Notes under the pieces: generated by a model
Told to the model about the DNA's origin: nothing
The model's database searches: none
The model's input: the letters and a program-made list of their open reading frames with translations, nothing else
Translations under genes and position numbers: made by a program
Part shown: positions 4,397 to 34,283 of the stretch, piece after piece
Position numbering within the stretch: position 1 is the first letter of the stretch
Layout: the number at the start of each line of letters is the position of its first letter
Assembly (NCBI GenBank): GCA_034530875.2
Contig: JAVRCJ020000004.1
Location: 224,001-288,000, forward strand
Direction of reading: 5' to 3'
Length of the DNA stretch: 64,000 nt
Source of the DNA: Nostoc sp. DedSLP01
GTDB lineage: Bacteria > Cyanobacteriota > Cyanobacteriia > Cyanobacteriales > Nostocaceae

Positions 4397-4918
4397 ATGG
4401 TTTTAGATGCATTTGCAAAAGTAGTTTCCCAAGCCGATACACGTGGGGAATATCTCACCGATGCACAATTGGATGCTTTGAGCGAACTAGTCAAAGATGG
4501 TAACAAGCGTGCAGATGCTGTTAACCGCATTACCAGCAATGCGTCTGCTATTGTTGCTGCTGCGGTACGCGACCTGTGGGCAGAACAACCCCAATTGATC
4601 GCTCCTGGCGGAAATGCTTACACCAGCCGTCGCGCTGCTGCTTGTATCCGCGACTTGGACATCATCCTGCGCTATGTTACTTATGCAATCTTTGCTGGTG
4701 ACTCTAGCGTATTAGACGATCGCGCTCTCAATGGTTTGCGCGAAACCTACTTGGCATTGGGAACTCCTGGAGCTTCCGTTGCAGTTGGAATTCAAAAGCT
4801 CAAAGATGCTTCTCTGAAGATTGTTAACGATCCAAATGGCATCACCAGAGGAGATTGCAGTGCATTAGCAGCTGAAATCGCTAGCTACTTCGATCGCGCT
4901 GCTGCTGCTGTTGCCTAA
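4397..4918 (+). CDS. cpcB: Phycocyanin beta subunit, sulfur-depleted (cpcB3-type)
   Basis: PGGNAYT..RR.AAC.RD and GDCS motifs; RBS AGGAG; only 2 Cys and no internal Met. Confidence 0.97.
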
Positions 4919-5007
4919 TCTAGGCACTGTTGCTCTTGAGTGAAATAATTGTCCGCAAGACAAAACAGAATTTCAACAAAAAAGTTTGTTAAAGGGAAGT
5001 ACCAAAA

Positions 5008-5499
5008 ATGACAAAAACACCTCTAACCGAAGCAATTTCAGCAGCTGACTCTCAAGGCCGTTACCTCAGCAGCACCGAACTTCAAGTAGCTTTTGGTCGT
5101 TTTCGCCAAGCGCCAGCTAGCTTGCAAGCAGCAAAATCCCTGAGCGCTAATGCGTCTCGCTTGACTGAAGGTGCAGCTCAAGCTGTATACAACAAATTCC
5201 CTTACACCACACAACAACAAGGCCCCAACTTTGCACACGACCAACGTGGTAAAGCTAAGTGTGTGCGTGATGTCGGCTACTACTTGCGGATTATCACCTA
5301 CGCTTTAGTTGTTGGTGGCACAGGTCCCTTGGATGATTTCTTGATTTCCGGCTTAGCTGAAATCAACAAAACCTTCGACCTGTCTCCTAGCTGGTACATT
5401 GAAGCTCTCAAGTACATCAAAGCTAACCACGGTCTCAGCGGCGACCCAGCTGTTGAAGCCAACTCCTACATCGACTACGTAATCAATACTCTGAGCTAG
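5008..5499 (+). CDS. cpcA: Phycocyanin alpha subunit, sulfur-depleted (cpcA3-type)
   Basis: [32 protein letters not shown]; 1 Cys and no internal Met. Confidence 0.97.
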
Positions 5500-5511
5500 A
5501 GTGTTTCTTTA

Positions 5512-5573
5512 GCCCGGAGAGGAAATCAGCTCTTATGACAAAGAAGTTCTATGAGTTGCTTACCTCTCCGGGC
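5512..5573 (+). terminator. Stem-loop after cpcA (partial terminator or mRNA stabiliser)
   Basis: GCCCGGAGAGG ... CCTCTCCGGGC 11-bp stem followed by a T-rich tract. Confidence 0.75.
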
Positions 5574-5668
5574 AGTTTTATTTTCAAAAGACTGTTAACT
5601 GTTAAAAGATTAGAAAAATCCTTTCTAAAAAGTTTTCAGTTTTGTAGTTAAAACTGAGGAGGTTAAGG

Positions 5669-6481
5669 ATGGTAGCTTTGGGACAAGCGGCAAGGCTGGG
5701 AATTGAACCATTTGAAAACTCAGGAGTAATAGAACTACGTCCTGATAGAACAGAAACAGACATAGCAGTAGCGATTCGTGCAGCTTACCGCCAAGTTTTA
5801 GGTAATGCATACCTACTAGAAGGCGAGCGTTTGGAAAGTGCTGAATCATTGCTACGGCAGGGTACAATTTCAGTCCGGGGTTTTGTATTGGCTATTGCTC
5901 AATCGGAACTCTATCGGGAGAAATTTTTCTACTCCAACTCACAAACTCGGTTTATCGAGTTGAATTATAAGCATTTATTAGGTCGCGCCCCAGAAGATGA
6001 GTCAGAAATTTCGTACCATGTTGAGTTATACAACTCAGAGGGTTACGAAGCTGAAATTAATTCTTATATTGACTCATCAGAATATCAAGAAAACTTTGGC
6101 GAAAATATTGTCCCCTACTACAGAGGTTTTAAAAGCCAAGTAGGGAAGAAAAATGTTGGCTACGGCCGGCTATTTCAACTGTATCGGGGTTATGCGAATA
6201 GCGATCGCGCTCAAGGACAAAAACAAGGAAAGCTAACCTGGGAAATAGCTAAGAATCTAGCTTCACCTATCTATCCAGTATCTTCTGGAGCCTTAACTGG
6301 TCTTTCTACAGGGGATCGTGGAGAAGCATATCGCATTAGATTCCTACAAGCAGCTTCTCCCAATTCAGCTGTAGTACGGCGGGGTACTGCCGAGTTGATA
6401 GTTCCCTACGAGCAACTTTCCAGTAAATTGCAGCAGCTAAATCGCAAAGGTAGTAAAGTGATTAGCATCAAAGCTGTGTAA
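5669..6481 (+). CDS. cpcC: Phycocyanin rod linker (CpcC/CpcH-type), no internal Met/Cys
   Basis: AYRQVLGN and [13 protein letters not shown] linker motifs plus C-terminal CpcD-like domain. Confidence 0.9.
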
Positions 6482-6715
6482 GTAAAGAATAGAGTTAGAG
6501 GAATAAATATAGAGGCGATTAATCGCATCTATACCGGAGTATGTAAAAGGCTCCAGAGATAGGGAGAAAAGAGCAGAAGCAAAAAACTTTTCTCTCTTAT
6601 TCCCTCGTGCGCCACTCTCGGGGAAGCTAAAGCCACATCTTCTTTATTCTCTAGTCTCTATTATTTGCTTTCCTGGCTAATACCAATTACCTATTACTCA
6701 AGGAGAATTTTCAAG

Positions 6716-7585
6716 ATGACGATTACAACAGCAGCATCCCGGCTGGGAGCAGAACCTTTTATTGGTAGCGCCCCTGTGGAATTGCGTCCAAATGCGACTA
6801 AAGAAGATATAGAAAGAGTAATTTCTGCCGTCTATCGTCAGTTGTTGGGCAACGATTATATATTGGCAGCTGACCGCCTCATCAGTGCCGAATCGATTTT
6901 GCGCGATGGCAAAATCACCGTGCAAGAGTTTGTGCGTCAAGTAGCTAAATCAGAACTCTACAAAAAGAAATTTTTCTACGACAACTTCCAAACTCGCGTC
7001 ATTGAACTCAACTATAAACATTTGTTGGGTCGTGCGCCTTACGATGAGTCTGACGTAGTTTATCACTTAGATTTGTACCAAAATCAAGGCTACGATGCTG
7101 ACATTGATTCATATATAGATTCGCCAGAGTATCAAGCCAACTTTGGGGAAAATATAGTACCTTATTATCGCGGTTTTGAAACTCAAACAGGGCAAAAAAC
7201 CGTGGGATTTAGCCGTATATTCCAACTTTATCGCGGCTATGCAAGTAGCGATCGCTCCCAACTCAAAGGCAAATCTTCTCGTTTGGCTAGCGAATTAGGC
7301 CGCAATGCTGCATCTGCTGTAATTGCTCCCTCCGGCGGTCCCTCAGGCTTTGCTTATGTTGCTCCCGCCAAAGGCGTTACCCCCAACAGTACTTTCGGTG
7401 GTGCAGGAACTTTTGGTAAACAAGGCAGACTCTACCGCGTTGAAGTAGCAGCTGTTTTTGGAGCTGGATATCCTAAGACTCGCCGCGTGAATCAAGCTGT
7501 AATCATACCTTATGAAGAACTATCTAGCTACTTCCAAAGAGTAGTAAAACAAGGTGGTAAAATCGCCAGCGTCACACCACTTTAA
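6716..7585 (+). CDS. cpcC: Phycocyanin rod linker (CpcC/CpcI-type), no internal Met/Cys
   Basis: [11 protein letters not shown] start after AGGAG RBS (ATG 6716); linker motifs; [10 protein letters not shown] end. Confidence 0.92.
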
Positions 7586-26580: not shown

Positions 26581-27408
26581 TTAACCAAAACGTCCGCTGA
26601 TATAGTCCTCCGCTTCTCTAGTTTGAGGAGAATTAAACATTTGCAGCGTAGGACTGAACTCGACTAATTTTCCGCGGCGTTTGCCATGTTCGTCAATTTC
26701 TGTATTGAAGAACGCGGTGAAATCTGCAACTCTAGAAGCTTGCTGCATGTTGTGAGTCACCATAACGATAGTATATTGCTCCTTGAGTTCTAAGCACAAT
26801 TCTTCTACTTGACGGCTAGAAATCGGGTCGAGAGCAGAGCATGGTTCATCCATTAATAATACATCTGGCTTCATAGCGATCGCTCTGGCAATACAAAGCC
26901 GTTGCTGTTGTCCGCCAGATAATGCAGTACCCTTTTCTTTGAGTTTGTCTTTGACTTCATCCCAGATAGCGGCGCGTCTGAGGGAATTTTCTACCAATTC
27001 ATCGATATTACCTTTATAACCGTTAGAACGCGGGCCAAAAGCAATATTTTCGTATATTGACTTGGGGAAAGGATTCGGTCTTTGAAAAACCATTCCCACT
27101 TGACGGCGTAATTTTACAGAATTAATATTGGGGTCGTAAATATTGCGATCGCGATAATTCAATCTACCTTCTACCTTCGCTCCAGGGATTAAATCATTCA
27201 TTCTATTGAAGCAACGCAGTAAGGTACTTTTACCGCATCCTGAAGGGCCAATAAAAGCAATAATTTGTTTTTCTGGAATCTTCAAATAGACATCTAAAAG
27301 TGCCAGGAATCCGCCATAGTATACTTTTACTCCTTCAGCATTAAATACTGTATTTGTTTGTTCTAGTGTGGCGCTATCTCGTTGATTTCTGCTATTGCTA
27401 TAGGTCAT
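26581..27408 (-). CDS. pstB: Pst-family ABC ATPase
   Basis: [48 protein letters not shown]; start ATG 27408 with GGAG RBS. Confidence 0.93.
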
Positions 27409-27489
27409 TTTGTGTATCTCCAAATCCTCAAAAAAATTAGCCAATTAGCTTTCAATTATCTTTATCAATGCTGAATTATTACCATTTAT

Positions 27490-28389
27490 TTAATGTGTAG
27501 AGAAGCGTTGTCTGATATAAATTGCCACACCATTTAACGCTAAAATCAACAATAACAACGCAATAATTGTGGCTGCTGCTGCATCAGCAAAACCTGGTTC
27601 CGGACGAGTAATATAACTGTAAATTTGAATGGGTAATGCCATAAACCTTTGAAACAAACCAGGATCGAAGGTGAGAAAACCCACAGCACCTACAACAATT
27701 AGAGAAGCTGCATCACCAATAGCACGGGATACAGAAATAATTACTCCAGTCAAAATACCAGGAATTGCATAGGGTATGACATGACTGCTAATAGTTCGCC
27801 ATTTGGTTACGCCTAAGCCATAAGAAGCATTTCGCAAGGAATCTGGGACAGCGCGAATTGCTTCTCTAGCCGTCACAATGATTACTGGTAAAGACAATAA
27901 AGATAAAGTCAATGCACCAGAAATCAAAGCGGGGCCAAATCCCAGCAAATAATTGAAAACTCCTAAACCCAGCAATCCATAAACTATAGAAGGTACACCC
28001 GCTAGATTGCTAATGTTAATTTCAATAATTGCTGTCCACCAAGCTTTAGGTGCGTATTCTTCGAGATATAAAGCTGCTCCCACACCAACTGGAACAGTTA
28101 CTAAAATAACAAGTATTCCTAAAAGAATACTACTAATAATAGCAGGACGAATGCCACCTTGGTCGGGGAAACGAGAAGGCGTTTCTGTAAGAAAGCCAGG
28201 TGATAAAAATCTGCCTAATCCATCTCGGAGAATATCAAAAAGTAACAATGCTAGGATAAATAAACCAACAAGTAATCCTAATAAAAAAATGAATTCAAAT
28301 ATCTTTCCTAGCGTTTCTCTCTTCTCAACATTGTCAGTAAATTCTGCTGCCGAATCCCAAGACTCATCTCTTTGATAACTTGTAGCCAT
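27490..28389 (-). CDS. pstA: Pst-family ABC permease PstA
   Basis: YLEEYA, NLAGVPSIVYGLLGL, EAIRAVP, SRAIG. Confidence 0.9.
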   Translation of the reverse strand: MATSYQRDESWDSAAEFTDNVEKRETLGKIFEFIFLLGLLVGLFILALLLFDILRDGLGRFLSPGFLTETPSRFPDQGGIRPAIISSILLGILVILVTVPVGVGAALYLEEYAPKAWWTAIIEINISNLAGVPSIVYGLLGLGVFNYLLGFGPALISGALTLSLLSLPVIIVTAREAIRAVPDSLRNASYGLGVTKWRTISSHVIPYAIPGILTGVIISVSRAIGDAASLIVVGAVGFLTFDPGLFQRFMALPIQIYSYITRPEPGFADAAAATIIALLLLILALNGVAIYIRQRFSTH

Positions 28390-28394
28390 GCTTA

Positions 28395-29336
28395 TTACTC
28401 GTATTTTTCTTTAAAGCGATTAGCAATCCAATAACTAACAATATTTAAAATTAGTGTAATTACAAACAACACAGCGCCCACAGCATATAATGTGTTGAAA
28501 TTGAGACTGCCACGCGGACTGTCTCCACCAGAAATTTGTGCCATGTAAGCTGTCATTGTTTCTATTGATTCTGCAAAATTAATCGTCAGTTTGGGTTGTT
28601 GTCCAGCAGCAATTAGTACTGTCATTGTTTCACCAACCGCACGAGAAATACCCAAAATAATTGAAGCGATAATTCCAGAAAGTGCTGCTGGGAGGACTAC
28701 TTTAAAGATGGTTTCCAGTTTAGTGATACCAATGGCATAAGCTCCTTCTCTTAAAGAACGTGGAACAGATCGAATCGCATCTAAGCTAATAGAACCAACT
28801 GTAGGAGTAATCATTACGCCCATCATTAATCCGGCACTTAAGGCGTTGAAGATTTCTAAAGGGATCAAATTTCGGAGTAATGGCGTCACGAATAATAATG
28901 CAAAATATCCATAGACTACCGTTGGCACTCCTGCTAACAGTTCTACTGCCGGACGTAAAATTGCTGCTACTTTCGGTTGAGCATATTCACTCAAATAAAT
29001 GGCGGAGGACAAGCCTAAAGGAATAGCCACTGCCATAGCGATCGCAGTAGTCAACAAAGTACCATTAATCAAAGGCCAGATACCAAAATGTTTCTCTGCA
29101 AATAGAGGCGTCCACTTAGTATCGAGAAAGAATTGAGCAAAGGAAACTTCTTTAAAAAAAGCAAATGTCTCCTGAAAGATAATTACGACAATACCAAAGG
29201 TAGTCAAAACCGAAACTAAAGCACAAGCAAATAAAATCGCCGCCACAATTTTTTCTGAGATATCTTCAGATGCATTTTTCTCTAGTGACTGTCTAGATAA
29301 TAAATAAGGATCTTCTTGAAAATTCTGATTTGCCAT
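28395..29336 (-). CDS. pstC: Pst-family ABC permease PstC
   Basis: IYLSEYA, ELLAGVPTVVYG, SRAVGETM. Confidence 0.92.
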   Translation of the reverse strand: MANQNFQEDPYLLSRQSLEKNASEDISEKIVAAILFACALVSVLTTFGIVVIIFQETFAFFKEVSFAQFFLDTKWTPLFAEKHFGIWPLINGTLLTTAIAMAVAIPLGLSSAIYLSEYAQPKVAAILRPAVELLAGVPTVVYGYFALLFVTPLLRNLIPLEIFNALSAGLMMGVMITPTVGSISLDAIRSVPRSLREGAYAIGITKLETIFKVVLPAALSGIIASIILGISRAVGETMTVLIAAGQQPKLTINFAESIETMTAYMAQISGGDSPRGSLNFNTLYAVGAVLFVITLILNIVSYWIANRFKEKYE

Positions 29337-29350
29337 AAATAGTAGTTTAT

Positions 29351-30352
29351 TTAAATAAACTTTGTAATCGGTTCGCCAGGTTTGGCTTTTTTAAATTTTG
29401 TCCCAGTTTCACCCCTATTAAATTTTTCTTTGGTTTTGATATATGCTTCATCAGGTAATGCAACATAACCAACGCTATCTACCCATTTCCAAGAATTGTC
29501 TAGATAAAAATCTACAAATTCTTTCACTGCTGGTTTAGTATCTAAGGATTTTTTACTCACATAGATAAATAGAGGTCGAGATAAAGGTGTGTAGATATTT
29601 TTAATCACATTATCCACAGGAACTGGTTTTTGACATTTTCCTAAAGGACTTTCTACACCAACTAAATTCAGTTTTTCTTGGTTTTGAATGTAGTAAGATA
29701 TACCCACATAGCCTAATGAAAATTCATCTCCTGATACACCTTGTACCAGCAAATTTTGATTGTGGCTGGGAGTGTAGTCTGTACGGCCGTTCTTAGCTTT
29801 GCCAGTCACAGCTTGAGTCATATAATCAAACGTCCCAGTATCAGAAGCCGGAGCATACAGCTTAAGTTTTTGATTAGGAAATTTGGGATTTACTTGATTC
29901 CAACTTAATATTTTGCTGTCTGATTTAGCACTCCAAATCTTGTCTAATTCTTTAATAGTTAGACATTTAGCAAAGTTATTTTTACGATTGGCAATCACGG
30001 CAATGCCATCCAAAGCTATAGGCAATTCAACAAAGTCAATATTCTTACTTTGACATTTCTTAATTTCTTCATCTCTAATGGTACGAGAAGCACCAGCTAT
30101 ATCAATATCACCATTACAAAATTTACTGAAACCGCCACCAGTACCACTTGAGGCTACACTCACTTTAGCTTCGGGTTTGCTTTTGCCATATTCTTCTGCA
30201 ACTGCTAAAGAAATAGGAAAACCTACAGCGGCACCATCAATACTTACTTGACTTTTCAATTCTTGTCCGCTGTTACAAGCACTAAGACTACCGACAAGAA
30301 GCGTTATAGAAGTTAGCAAGAGGCTATTTTTGAATCGGTGACGAAAGGTCAT
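29351..30352 (-). CDS. pstS: PstS-family substrate-binding lipoprotein with altered binding motif
   Basis: Lipobox LSAC, SSGTGGGF.KFC, ASR, YTPLSRPLFIYV; usual IDGSST reads IDGAAV. Confidence 0.85.
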   Translation of the reverse strand: MTFRHRFKNSLLLTSITLLVGSLSACNSGQELKSQVSIDGAAVGFPISLAVAEEYGKSKPEAKVSVASSGTGGGFSKFCNGDIDIAGASRTIRDEEIKKCQSKNIDFVELPIALDGIAVIANRKNNFAKCLTIKELDKIWSAKSDSKILSWNQVNPKFPNQKLKLYAPASDTGTFDYMTQAVTGKAKNGRTDYTPSHNQNLLVQGVSGDEFSLGYVGISYYIQNQEKLNLVGVESPLGKCQKPVPVDNVIKNIYTPLSRPLFIYVSKKSLDTKPAVKEFVDFYLDNSWKWVDSVGYVALPDEAYIKTKEKFNRGETGTKFKKAKPGEPITKFI

Positions 30353-30439: not shown

Positions 30440-31597
30440 TTATGCTTTTTTGCCAGCTACAGCTTTATCAAAAATCGCGCCATCTCCAAAAAACTTTTTC
30501 TCGATATTATCCCAGCCGCCTAAATCTTGAGACGTAAATAATGTATCTACTTGCGGATATTCAGATAATACTTCTTGGGAAACAATGGGGTTAACAGGAC
30601 GATACTGTAATTTAGCAAATTCTCGTTGAGCTTCTGTTGAATAAAGGTAATCAACAAATGCTTGTGCAACTTTTCTTGTCCCGTGCTTATCAACGTTTTT
30701 ATCAACTACAGCTACAGGATTATCAATAGAAATATTGAGTTTTGGTACTACATAAGGGAGTTTTTTTCCAGCCTTTTCTGCCAAAATTACCTCATTTTCG
30801 TAGGTAATTAAGACGTCTCCTTGACCTTTTTGGAAAAACAAATCGCTAGCTTCACGAGCATCTTTTGCTAGTGGAGGAGTGTTTTTATAGACTTTGGTGA
30901 CATAATCTAATGCTGTTGTTTCGTCACCTCCGGCTTGAGTCACCGAACCCCATAAAGCTAAGAATTCCCAAATAGCAATACCAGAGGTTTTTGGGTTAGC
31001 TGCAATCAGTGTCACCCCATCTTTTGTTAAGTCTTGCCAAGTATAGATATTTTTGGGATTACCTTCGCGAGTGACGATAGTAGCAACAGATCTGCTGACG
31101 ATACCATTTCTAGGAGATTTGATTTCCCAACCTGGTTTAATTAAACCTGCTTGTTGAATTTTATTTACATCCAGAGGAAGCGCTAAATGTACGATATCTG
31201 CTTCTTGAGAACCGTCAATAACAGCAGCAGTTTGAGCGCCAGAACCTCCATAACTTTGTTCAAATATGATGTTTTGGTTGTGTTCTTGCTTCCACTTTTC
31301 GACAAATTTTGGAATTATTTGGTCGTGAGCTGCTTTAGTAACGGAAAAAGAAACCAGCCTCAGCTTGAGATCGGCATTATTAGCGGAACTGCTTCCCGAA
31401 CAGGAGGCAACCAACATGCTCAAAACAGCACCTATGAGTAACAAACTTGCGAAACTCTGGATAGTACGTCCATTCAGCCAATTTCTAATTCGGCGTTGGT
31501 ACGAAAATTTCATAAGTTCCAAAGTTTTCTTGCGAGAATTCTGCATTACTTGAGCTAGGTATTTCCCTATTTCTGTCCGTTGTTGCGGCTTGCTCAT
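30440..31597 (-). CDS. sbp: Sulfate/thiosulfate-binding protein family lipoprotein
   Basis: SYGGSG, ANPKTSG, DAREA, YENE, ISIDNPVAVVD, GGW; lipobox VASC; mature part lacks Met/Cys. Confidence 0.88.
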   Translation of the reverse strand: MSKPQQRTEIGKYLAQVMQNSRKKTLELMKFSYQRRIRNWLNGRTIQSFASLLLIGAVLSMLVASCSGSSSANNADLKLRLVSFSVTKAAHDQIIPKFVEKWKQEHNQNIIFEQSYGGSGAQTAAVIDGSQEADIVHLALPLDVNKIQQAGLIKPGWEIKSPRNGIVSRSVATIVTREGNPKNIYTWQDLTKDGVTLIAANPKTSGIAIWEFLALWGSVTQAGGDETTALDYVTKVYKNTPPLAKDAREASDLFFQKGQGDVLITYENEVILAEKAGKKLPYVVPKLNISIDNPVAVVDKNVDKHGTRKVAQAFVDYLYSTEAQREFAKLQYRPVNPIVSQEVLSEYPQVDTLFTSQDLGGWDNIEKKFFGDGAIFDKAVAGKKA

Positions 31598-31615: not shown

Positions 31616-31641
31616 TACGGTATTTCTAGACAGATACCGTA
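31616..31641. promoter_or_regulatory. Palindromic operator-like site upstream of sbp
   Basis: TACGGTAT-N10-ATACCGTA perfect inverted repeat 19-44 bp before the sbp ATG. Confidence 0.6.
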
Positions 31642-31911
31642 AAAAGAATTATAGGGTATATACAACAATAATTTTCATCTAGCTTTAATTTTTTTTAATG
31701 TAGCTATAGGTATTTTTAGATAGGTACGCCCTAAAGCTACAGGAATGCTCAAAGGATGTTTGTGTTGTGTGTCTGAGCAAGAGAAGGAAATTTAACAAAT
31801 AGAGCAAAGACTAGTAAAGATACTCATCACAGTACGCTGACACAACTTAGATATTAGCATTTAAAGACATAGCTAGCTGTAAATTAACTTGACGCCGATC
31901 GCTCGTAATAA

Positions 31912-32893: not shown

Positions 32894-34129
32894 CTATAAC
32901 AGCAACTGCCAATAATTTGCAGCTTGTGTCAGATTCATTGATAAAAGCTGAGGATTTCCCAAATCTAAAACATCTTCAGGATTTGTTGGCACAATTTCCA
33001 GACATTTGATAATTTCTTGAGCGATCGCTCTTGCTAATGGTGGCGGAACTGCATTTCCTACCTGCCTTGCACCATGCCATTTAGTAATATGAAAACGAAA
33101 CCAATCGGGAAACCCATGTAATCTTGCCATTTCCCTGACTGTAATGCAGCGAGGCTGACTATAATGAATCGGCCTTGGTGAAGTATGTGCGCCGTGAGCA
33201 GCATCAGTTCCGGCTCTTAAAGTGTTGGCTATGCCCTCTTTTGCCAGTTTGAAAAAGTGAGAAATAGGTTCTTTTTTTCCCTCTTCTGTAGCGAGAAATC
33301 TAGCCCTTGAAATCTGTGAATGATTAGTTCTCATACTAGAAGTCAAAACAGAAGGATTCCAATTTCTCCTATAGCCAAAATACCAGCTTTTATCATCTAA
33401 ACATCTCATTTCTTGTGCGTAGCTGCTGGGATTTTTCCACTTTTGTGTTTCTACCCAATCGTTAAATAATAACTCTTCAAAATCTTCTACTTCTGGTAAA
33501 TCTCCAAGGGCATCCCAACAAGTAGGAGTAGGAAAAATAGAACTAGCTAATTTAGTAGATGGAGTAGGATATTGAGGCAAGACAAAACCTTTCTTTGCAC
33601 CAATGATAAATAATCTTTCTCGCCTTTGTGGTACTCCATAATCAGCAGCATTCAAAACTTTCCACGGTAAACGGATTTGATAGCCATTTTTGCTGAAAGT
33701 TTTAATTAGTTCAGACAAAAAACGTTTATGTTTCCCTACTGTTAAACCTTTAACGTTTTCAAATACAAAATAAAAAGGTTCTAATTCTAAGACAATTCTA
33801 ATAAAATCTTTGACTAAAAAATTTCTGGGGTCGTCTAATGCTCTGCGGCCTATATAAGAATAACCTTGACAAGGCGAACCAGAAATTATAGTTTCAATAT
33901 TTTGGTTGCCAATTCCAGTCCTTTCCCGAATTTCTTTGCCTGTTAATTCAGTTATCGAACAAGGTAATACAACACAATGGGGGAAATTAAATTTATGAAC
34001 GACTGCATGAACTGGATCGATTTCAACAGCAGCTTTCACATCAAAACCAGCTTGTTCAAATCCTAAACTTAGCCCTCCTGCACCAGCAAATAAATCTATT
34101 ACTATTGGTCTTTTTAGCTGCTGTTTCAT
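32894..34129 (-). CDS. Solitary C5-cytosine DNA methyltransferase, M.Ssp6803I-like (probably CGATCG)
   Basis: DLFAGAGG, PCQG, FENV, QRRER, GNAV motifs; TLRAGT and PRPIHY TRD recalled from the Ssp6803I family; start moved to ATG 34129 because the upstream extension is STRR-derived. Confidence 0.85.
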   Translation of the reverse strand: MKQQLKRPIVIDLFAGAGGLSLGFEQAGFDVKAAVEIDPVHAVVHKFNFPHCVVLPCSITELTGKEIRERTGIGNQNIETIISGSPCQGYSYIGRRALDDPRNFLVKDFIRIVLELEPFYFVFENVKGLTVGKHKRFLSELIKTFSKNGYQIRLPWKVLNAADYGVPQRRERLFIIGAKKGFVLPQYPTPSTKLASSIFPTPTCWDALGDLPEVEDFEELLFNDWVETQKWKNPSSYAQEMRCLDDKSWYFGYRRNWNPSVLTSSMRTNHSQISRARFLATEEGKKEPISHFFKLAKEGIANTLRAGTDAAHGAHTSPRPIHYSQPRCITVREMARLHGFPDWFRFHITKWHGARQVGNAVPPPLARAIAQEIIKCLEIVPTNPEDVLDLGNPQLLSMNLTQAANYWQLLL

Positions 34130-34283
34130 TTTTTCTTCTGGGCATAGGGCATTGGGCAAGCAGGAGGTGTGGGAGGATAGGGAAGAAATCTTTCCCCCCA
34201 CACTCCCCACACTTCCCCATCTTCTCATCTCCCCCCTAGTCCCCACACTCCCCTATTACCTCATCTCCCCATCTCCCCACTCC

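Follow-up and report, generated by a model that had tools for sequence, protein, structure and literature searches.

A Pst-family transport system of Nostocaceae that may import a sulfur anion under a putative 26-bp operator

In a 64,000-nucleotide stretch of the Nostoc sp. DedSLP01 genome (the window), we analyzed a five-gene unit in which a paralogue of the sulfate-binding protein precedes pstS, pstC, pstA, and pstB genes; the genes and products of this unit are called variant below (Table 1). On balance, its features favor an importer of a sulfur anion (methanesulfonate from the dimethylsulfone route, thiosulfate, sulfite, or sulfate) that would have been made from a Pst system by changes at two hydroxyls, an acidic loop, and a permease helix, would be carried by roughly one in three Nostocaceae genomes, and would be controlled by a previously undescribed 26-bp operator, perhaps recognized by an Rrf2 protein resembling CymR. 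The variant occurs in many filamentous cyanobacteria. A sulfur compound is probably imported, because key phosphate-gripping residues are lost and the control element is common to sulfur-scavenging genes.

Table 1. Features of the variant unit (window positions) and related loci elsewhere (locus labels)
Feature	Position	Strand	Description
-10-like hexamer TATAAT	31648..31653	-	presumed operon promoter
26-bp palindrome TACGGYA-N12-TRCCGTA	31616..31641	.	presumed repressor operator of a sulfur-starvation regulon, 18-19 nt before the sbp ATG
variant sbp	30440..31597	-	sulfate-binding-protein paralogue, TIGR00971 above cut-off, own clade, no adjacent cysTW
variant pstS	29351..30352	-	333-aa S-type (SphX-like) PstS paralogue; central gene
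codons A41-A42-V43-G44	30221..30232	-	replace SphX S15-S16-T17-V18
codons H197-N198-Q199	29756..29764	-	replace acidic E-D-D; Q199 = SphX D173 by offset
variant pstC	28395..29336	-	permease; RAVGE Arg and Glu kept = E. coli PstC R237/E241
variant pstA	27490..28389	-	permease; Arg kept = E. coli PstA R220
variant PstA G225-D-A-A-S229	27703..27717	-	replaces GETAP one turn past the anion-binding Arg; coordinates computed from ORF end
variant pstB	26581..27408	-	ABC ATPase, TIGR00972 above cut-off, motifs intact
cysE / Rrf2 / cysK with degenerate palindromes	L130:46-1562 (G000:C19), L220-L223		candidate CymR-like regulator
ORFs behind perfect palindromes (see text)	L124:4476-5312, L125:3483-4525, L143:1848-2882, L135:353-1117		possible novel sulfur-scavenging enzymes

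The anion pocket of the variant PstS

By sequence and predicted fold, the central protein is a member of the S-type PstS subfamily. It scored 251.6 bits against TIGR02136 (S-type/SphX PstS; curated cut-off, 206.6) and fell far below the cut-off of 205 for the D-type, E. coli-type family TIGR00975 (47.1 bits). With its AlphaFold model (pLDDT 84.3), the top Foldseek matches were all phosphate-binding proteins of the type II periplasmic binding fold, and the nearest solved structure was 4JWO, a possible phosphate-binding protein of Planctomyces limnophilus (E-value 6.7e-73 by sequence; TM 0.73/0.85 and 42% identity to the model). A conserved Cys26 follows a signal-like N-terminus. The D-type features were absent, with S89 at the position of the LBHB Asp and P168 at that of the charge-balancing Arg. 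The S-type hallmarks, Ser (S89) at the D-type LBHB Asp position and an Asp-Arg pair (D115 and R259), were present. The functional triad of the subfamily was missing, its Thr/Ser being replaced by V43 and the Ser two residues earlier by A41; therefore, annotating the protein as phosphate-binding should await a test.

Seven pocket residues of SphX (T45, S63, D89, P142, S146, G147, and T148) correspond to T71, S89, D115, P168, T172, G173, and T174 of the variant with a constant offset of 26, and therefore SphX S15, S16, T17, and D173 would correspond to A41, A42, V43, and Q199. Alignment to C. perfringens PBP-1 agrees directly (S11-T12-S13 = A41-A42-V43). By these two mappings, the changed residues lie in the anion pocket, as the sequence-only reading had supposed. 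The available text of the SphX study lists the side chains of S15, T17, T45, S63, S146, and T148 as phosphate ligands, together with five backbone amides and a water near D173; it describes D89-R231-T17 as a triad and reports that the T17A substitution abolished phosphate binding and that sulfate gave no DSF response (PMC13614923). The S16 side chain is not among the ligands listed in that text. In PBP-1, the phosphate oxygen O4 is contacted by the S13 OH, S13 NH, S59 OH, and S11 OH groups; the S13 hydroxyl is the proposed proton acceptor, and O4, touched by both hydroxyls that are lost in the variant, is probably the protonated oxygen, according to the sections available (PMC5381212). An S13A substitution in PBP-1 reportedly weakened phosphate binding only ~30-fold, and T148 may compensate. 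The same three residues hold phosphate in SAR11 PstS, as far as the accessible text describes (PMC12421899).

Four of the six SphX side-chain ligands are kept in the variant, and the equivalents of S15 and T17 are gone. Among the 206 distinct clade-range sequences, position 41 was Ala or Gly and position 43 was Val in 203 of 204 each; position 42 varied (A 192, T 6, V 3, S 2, and L 1 of 204); and N198 stood for Asp in all 206, with Q199 in 200 of them. Because positions 41, 43, and 198/199 are fixed and position 42 varies, the fixed losses comprise two hydroxyls at one oxygen and the acidic loop. Residues T71, S89, and T174 were found in 205/205 sequences and D115 was also invariant; together with N198, the first three behave as would be expected of a pocket in use. 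All 121 top homologues carried V43 and G44, with Ala or Gly at position 41. The exception among the clade-range sequences, P0314, is a near-canonical sister sequence; it reads GSATT at the N-terminal motif, yet is 67% identical to P0151, and may be an intermediate toward the variant pocket.

These results bear on most of the sequence-only reading. All of its quoted motifs occur in the translation (IDGAAVGFPIS, SGTGGG, GASR, PASDTGTFDY, and YTPSHNQN), including GTGGG and ASR, which it had described as kept. Its consensus DGSSTV was correct: all 18 canonical matches from cyanobacteria at loci L014-L030 carry [IV]DGSSTV[FYA]P, and, with the query and 15 gap rows set aside, SST was found in 127 of the 154 domain rows covering this position among the top 150 representatives of 50% clusters. 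Among these 150, the motif [AG]AV occurred solely in P0151, the clade's own representative. The claimed loss of N-terminal hydroxyls is fixed in the clade at positions 41 and 43 but not at position 42, which varies and whose SphX equivalent is not a listed ligand. The replacement of the acidic loop by YTPSHNQN was confirmed, whereas SDTGT in place of DSGT proved to be a conservative Ser-to-Thr change (SphX S146 = T172) with D171 kept. The tandem-domain matches P0152-P0155 were rejected as clade members on the basis of their canonical motifs; P0152-P0154 each have two S-type PstS domains in tandem, both canonical.

Gene order, permease changes, and distribution of the variant

The order sbp-pstS-pstC-pstA-pstB was observed in 77 of 80 loci, which are not independent because most are from Nostoc; of the remaining three, two lie at a contig edge and one is without intact pstA/pstB ORFs. 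The variant sbp stands beside pstS in 79/80 loci, median gaps within the unit are 5-84 nt, and the neighbors beyond the five genes vary. For pstB, an in-frame TTG is present at position 27444. All four Pst components either exceed the cut-offs of phosphate-specific families or match these families best. The CysT/CysW permeases and CysA of a sulfate importer were sought in the unit and not found, its permeases reaching 19-32 bits against cut-offs of 240-329; the cysTW genes of the source genome are on another contig. In G304, G331, G340, and G360, sbp-pstS stands apart and the variant pstCAB genes are kept in trans. The variant Sbp forms a clade separate from the cysT-linked SbpA (10 of 14 rows; support, 100/99), with its changes in the helix after the GGSG loop. 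A third solitary sulfate-binding paralogue of the source genome (L133:5359-6546, G000:C31) has SYQGYGSQ for SYGGSGSQ and a long branch. Upstream of the unit, between lpxB and a HEAT-like gene, lies an ORF that is cytosine DNA methyltransferase-like by its motifs (window 32894-34246, minus strand), found in 10/80 loci.

The permease has co-diverged with the variant PstS. Variant PstC proteins are 78-91% identical among carriers and 52-60% identical to the SphX-linked PstC. In PstA, D226, A227, and S229 were found in 15/15 variants, against E, T, and P in 12/12 SphX-linked and 2/2 D-type proteins. In E. coli, pore arginines bind phosphate and a PstA E224 mutation had no effect on transport, according to the parts of the report available (PMC12976172).

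In a PstS tree of 56 rows (three skipped), the variant formed a single clade (21/21 tips; FastTree support, 1.0; stem, 0.44). The median dN/dS of 0.078 over 79 pairs, a rough count, and the synonymous variation of codons 41-44 across the 80 loci show purifying selection on the variant pstS at the codon level. Decay or sequencing error as the source of the variant pocket was ruled out by conservation, the low dN/dS, and the synonymous codon variation. The variant was found in 13 of 301 genomes sampled across the phylum and in 54 of 151 sampled across the family, and its named sources are cyanobacteria. Two D-type pst operons are present in the source genome, from which canonical SphX is absent; several other carriers also hold canonical SphX; the accessible part of PMC7564538 includes a table on two ordinary pst operons. 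A second subgroup of the variant pstS, 61-64% identical and with the motif DGG[TSVL]VGY, precedes pstCAB without sbp. In G206 (L172:8144-8755) and G234 (L173:8581-10246), independent-looking deletions removed pstS together with part of pstC; the system therefore appears dispensable in some strains. What is left in G206 is an in-frame fusion of the beginning of pstS with the end of pstC.

The upstream palindrome and its association with sulfur genes

The palindrome was present in 85/89 upstream regions, and in 82 of these 85 a TA[TC]AAT box ended 0-10 nt before it, a position that would suit a repressor acting over the transcription start. Perfect sites in the source genome numbered six at a spacer of 12 and 0-1 at spacers of 9-11 and 13-15; with up to one mismatch, 5 of 10 sites were at sulfur genes (the variant sbp-pstS operon, ssuD, ssuA, a tauD-like gene, and ssuA/LLM) compared to 0 of 19 for spacers of 8-11 and 13-16, although these own-genome counts are partly circular because the pattern was widened to TACGGYA-N12-TRCCGTA after own-genome matches. 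In 67 other genomes, which are out-of-sample, 31 perfect sites were detected, six of them at the variant operon or its remnants. The other 25 comprised 18 at sulfur genes (five at ssuD, two at ssuE, four at sfnG or sfnG-like genes, two at ssuC, two at ssuB-like genes, and one each at a tauD-like gene, metY, and an sbp pair), about five of which score below family cut-offs, and seven without a clear sulfur link. Over the 68 genomes, a reversed-pattern control gave 4 sites versus 37. One-mismatch sites precede sbpA-cysT in G188 and G252. Perfect sites also precede the sbp-less pstS copies of G360 and G340, at distances of 217 and 345 nt, and the palindrome-pstS link is thus independent of sbp.

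The association is incomplete. In 11 of the 40 loci tallied, either no site lay within two mismatches or the 5' part was missing; the best site at the sbpA-cysTW operon of the source genome had 4 mismatches; just 6 of 23 sulfur genes of this genome, some internal to operons, had a palindrome within 450 nt; and half of its sites are not at known sulfur genes. A strict two-box Pho pattern was found in 0/89 upstream regions, and a three-box Pho score (maximum, 24) was non-separating, with 19 and 20 for the ordinary pst operons of the source genome, 20 for the variant operon, and 14-21 for background. In PMC1906773, Pho boxes are tabulated (Table 1 there) for three pst/sphX units of A. variabilis, which could not be matched to the variant pstS gene. 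A generic promoter/terminator scan performed at chance level.

A 3-mismatch palindrome lies in front of an Rrf2 gene between cysE and cysK in the source genome and in 4/5 others, making the Rrf2 protein a candidate regulator at the palindrome and a possible CymR-like master of Nostocales sulfur genes. CymR-type Rrf2 repressor regulons occur in Bacillota, and the cysE-Rrf2-cysK arrangement would be a parallel, with binding to the palindrome putative. Separately, perfect palindromes precede genes for a dienelactone-hydrolase-family protein, a DUF1932 oxidoreductase, and an aldo-keto reductase, and also an unassigned oxygenase-like ORF (Table 1).

Sulfur genes also adjoin the operon. It lies between sfnG-sfnB and ssuD-ssuE in G393, G418, G392, and G416; ssuE is upstream in G361, G419, and G338; ssuD-ssuE is 2.4 kb upstream in G305; and in G318 the operon, with a one-mismatch site, is flanked by metY on one side and by a phycocyanin pair poor in Met and Cys on the other. 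Across genomes, ssuD was found in 47/54 carriers versus 18/97 others (12/13 versus 13/55 in a first, overlapping sample) and sfnG in 16/54 versus 2/97, a co-occurrence inflated by kinship and genome size (carriers are mostly 7-12 Mb). Seven of the 54 carriers are without ssuD; five of these were checked for an LLM monooxygenase (E-value 1e-30), and none was detected in the draft genomes G327 and G154, nor was ssuA found in G327, which weakens a sulfonate-only reading. CysT was present in 13/13 carriers tested, and the source genome has seven ssuA-like genes. Sulfur-sparing composition was looked for in the operon proteins and not seen, Cys plus Met being higher in the variant PstS than in the D-type copies.

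Several other observations concern these regions. A cpcB, cpcA, and two-linker gene set (window 4397-7585, plus strand) encodes proteins with the initiator Met only and 2, 1, 0, and 0 Cys; it includes the sole phycocyanin beta gene above cut-off in the assembly, is without the palindrome (best, 4 mismatches), and presumably resembles the sulfur-sparing cpc3 type. Methionine salvage is represented by an mtnB-like gene and an adjoining ORF resembling mtnD, found repeatedly in the vicinity of sbpA-cysTW and of the second pstS subgroup and in some cases accompanied by palindromes with 2 mismatches (L192, L194-L196, L199, and L132:609-1319). Two genes recur beside ssuD and sfnG (L122:2072-4173, L206-L209): one for a PhnD-like binding protein, the other for a 416-aa protein that had no Pfam match at E 1e-8.

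Possible ligands, related systems, and implications

We propose that an SphX-type PstSCAB duplicate moved into a sulfur-starvation regulon and was retuned there. Upon sulfur shortage, a repressor would leave the palindrome at the transcription start, and the five genes would be transcribed together, as suggested by their order and short gaps. By the mapping, the variant PstS retains a Venus-flytrap fold and, as hydrogen-bond donors, T71, S89, T172, T174, and five backbone NH groups (nine in all), with Ala/Gly and Val mapping to where the protonated oxygen of phosphate is held and the nearby acids gone. From the retained donors and the lost hydroxyls and acids, we infer a three-oxygen anion with an apolar, soft, or missing fourth group. 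This anion would pass to the variant PstC-PstA, in which the two-arginine anion site is kept and the adjoining helix changed, and PstB would power import; the variant Sbp would probably be an extra sulfate receptor serving CysTWA in trans.

Induction of the operon by sulfur starvation is very likely, and some sulfur anion, all readings taken together, is the likely substrate. The narrower proposal of a sulfur-starvation importer for a three-oxygen anion whose fourth group is apolar or absent comes close to an even chance; within it, a small sulfonate such as methanesulfonate is doubtful when taken singly, thiosulfate equally so, and sulfite or another such anion distinctly improbable. A ligand without a donatable proton would fit the pocket. 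As sfnG and ssuD serve a methanesulfonate pathway, methanesulfonate suits the context of these genes, but not the carriers without desulfonating enzymes. Thiosulfate suits a pocket given more room by the S to A/G and V to G changes, and also the weak donors that remain and the pairing with Sbp. S89 and the V43 NH would still face the O4 position, where a methyl group would be less suited than sulfate or thiosulfate. Sulfate suits the lost acceptor, yet would duplicate CysTWA, and SphX did not respond to it. The suggestion of the sequence-only reading that one oxygen is replaced or absent gains from the finding that both fixed losses contact a single oxygen of PBP-1, but sulfate fits almost as well. 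Of its candidate ligands, the sulfur members are supported by the upstream sbp, the shared operator, and the altered PstA, and phosphite and methylphosphonate are not favored. The three-oxygen proposal is supported by the two D-type pst operons already covering phosphate; against it, T174, D115, and R259 are retained, as are the arginines on which the phosphate specificity of the E. coli permease depends.

Sulfur starvation might instead switch on a low-affinity importer of phosphate, a phosphate ester, or thiophosphate, but such an importer is unlikely. It could feed polyphosphate or allow sulfolipid to be swapped for phospholipid, and it would account for the match of all four components to phosphate-specific families, the four retained SphX side-chain ligands of six, the D115-R259 pair, both permease arginines, the residual binding of PBP-1 S13A, and the absence of canonical SphX from the source genome. 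However, two ligands of one oxygen were lost together with D173, T17A alone abolishes binding in SphX, the closer relative, several carriers hold canonical SphX as well, and the PstA GETAP motif, invariant in 14/14 phosphate permeases, is changed in 15/15 variants. Loss of the proposed proton acceptor (T17/S13) could instead have left a donors-only SO4 2- site, so that the variant Sbp and PstS both deliver sulfate; O4 retains two donors (the V43 NH and S89), acids near the site are lost, sbp is co-located in 79/80 loci, and carriers without ssuD exist. Such a second sulfate importer is quite unlikely: it would be redundant, because CysT is present in 13/13 carriers tested, the S15 hydroxyl would help sulfate binding while its loss would not, SphX shows no DSF response to sulfate, and one subgroup is without an adjacent sbp.

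It is improbable that the variant PstS has no tightly bound substrate and serves for docking, sensing, or capping while Sbp feeds PstC-PstA-PstB. The T17A phenotype predicts loss of binding, Sbp branches separately and is altered in the helix past the GGSG loop, and pstS is deleted in two genomes; but the remaining pocket residues are invariant (T71, S89, and T174 in 205/205; N198 in 206/206), pstSCAB exists without an adjacent sbp, and both deletions also cut pstC. Import of reduced phosphorus (phosphite or methylphosphonate) or of another non-sulfur oxyanion is very improbable: the pocket geometry argument is equally valid for P-H or P-CH3 at the O4 site, but no ptx/phn catabolic gene was noticed, by sequence starts, among the 40 commonest neighbor clusters of the 80 loci, and the operator and neighbors are sulfur-linked.

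Returning to sulfur-anion import, the variant would probably work like the Sbp/CysP or SsuA systems, built from Pst parts. The Sbp/CysP-CysTWA and SsuABC/TauABC systems have the same proposed job, ssu shares the upstream element, and the variant Sbp exceeds the TIGR00971 cut-off; those systems are present separately, however, and here the binding protein and permeases are of the Pst family, far below the CysT/CysW cut-offs. SphX of Synechocystis PCC 6803 shares the subfamily, the fold, and adjacent pstCAB with the variant, which keeps the equivalents of T45, S63, T148, G147, P142, D89, and R231, with S146 as Thr, but has A/G, A, V, G, and Q for S15, S16, T17, V18, and D173. SphX is under Pho boxes (PMC1906773), whereas the variant cluster lies under a palindrome common to sulfur genes. 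Unlike the variant, 4JWO keeps GSSTV, DTASGT, and an SNDDN-type acidic loop. PBP-1 (4Q8R; PMC5381212) and SAR11 PstS (9JWY; PMC12421899), as described in the accessible text, have an S-type pocket in which S41/T61, S59/S83, G130/G174, and T131/T175 are matched in the variant, but both keep three N-terminal hydroxyls, the range of the SAR11 protein being widened by a larger cavity. E. coli PstSCAB (9K3S/9K3X/9K3Y; PMC12976172, sections available) has the same five-subunit architecture and shares PstA R220 and PstC R237 and E241, but has E224-T-A-P where the variant has D-A-A-S, and a sulfate-binding gene stands in front only in the variant cluster. A search of largely open-access papers found no published description of the pstS clade, the palindrome, or a cyanobacterial CymR-like counterpart.

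All these genes are labelled as phosphate transporters, an annotation that would need correcting, and because of these labels their transcripts may be misread as phosphorus stress. The palindrome would provide a handle on sulfur-scavenging control in heterocyst-forming cyanobacteria. Anabaena (Trichormus) variabilis ATCC 29413 encodes a protein, ABA19671.1, that is 81% identical to the variant PstS. Strict phosphate selectivity is usually exemplified by PstSCAB; if the proposal is true, a natural switch to a sulfur anion would show which few residues carry this selectivity, in both receptor and pore.
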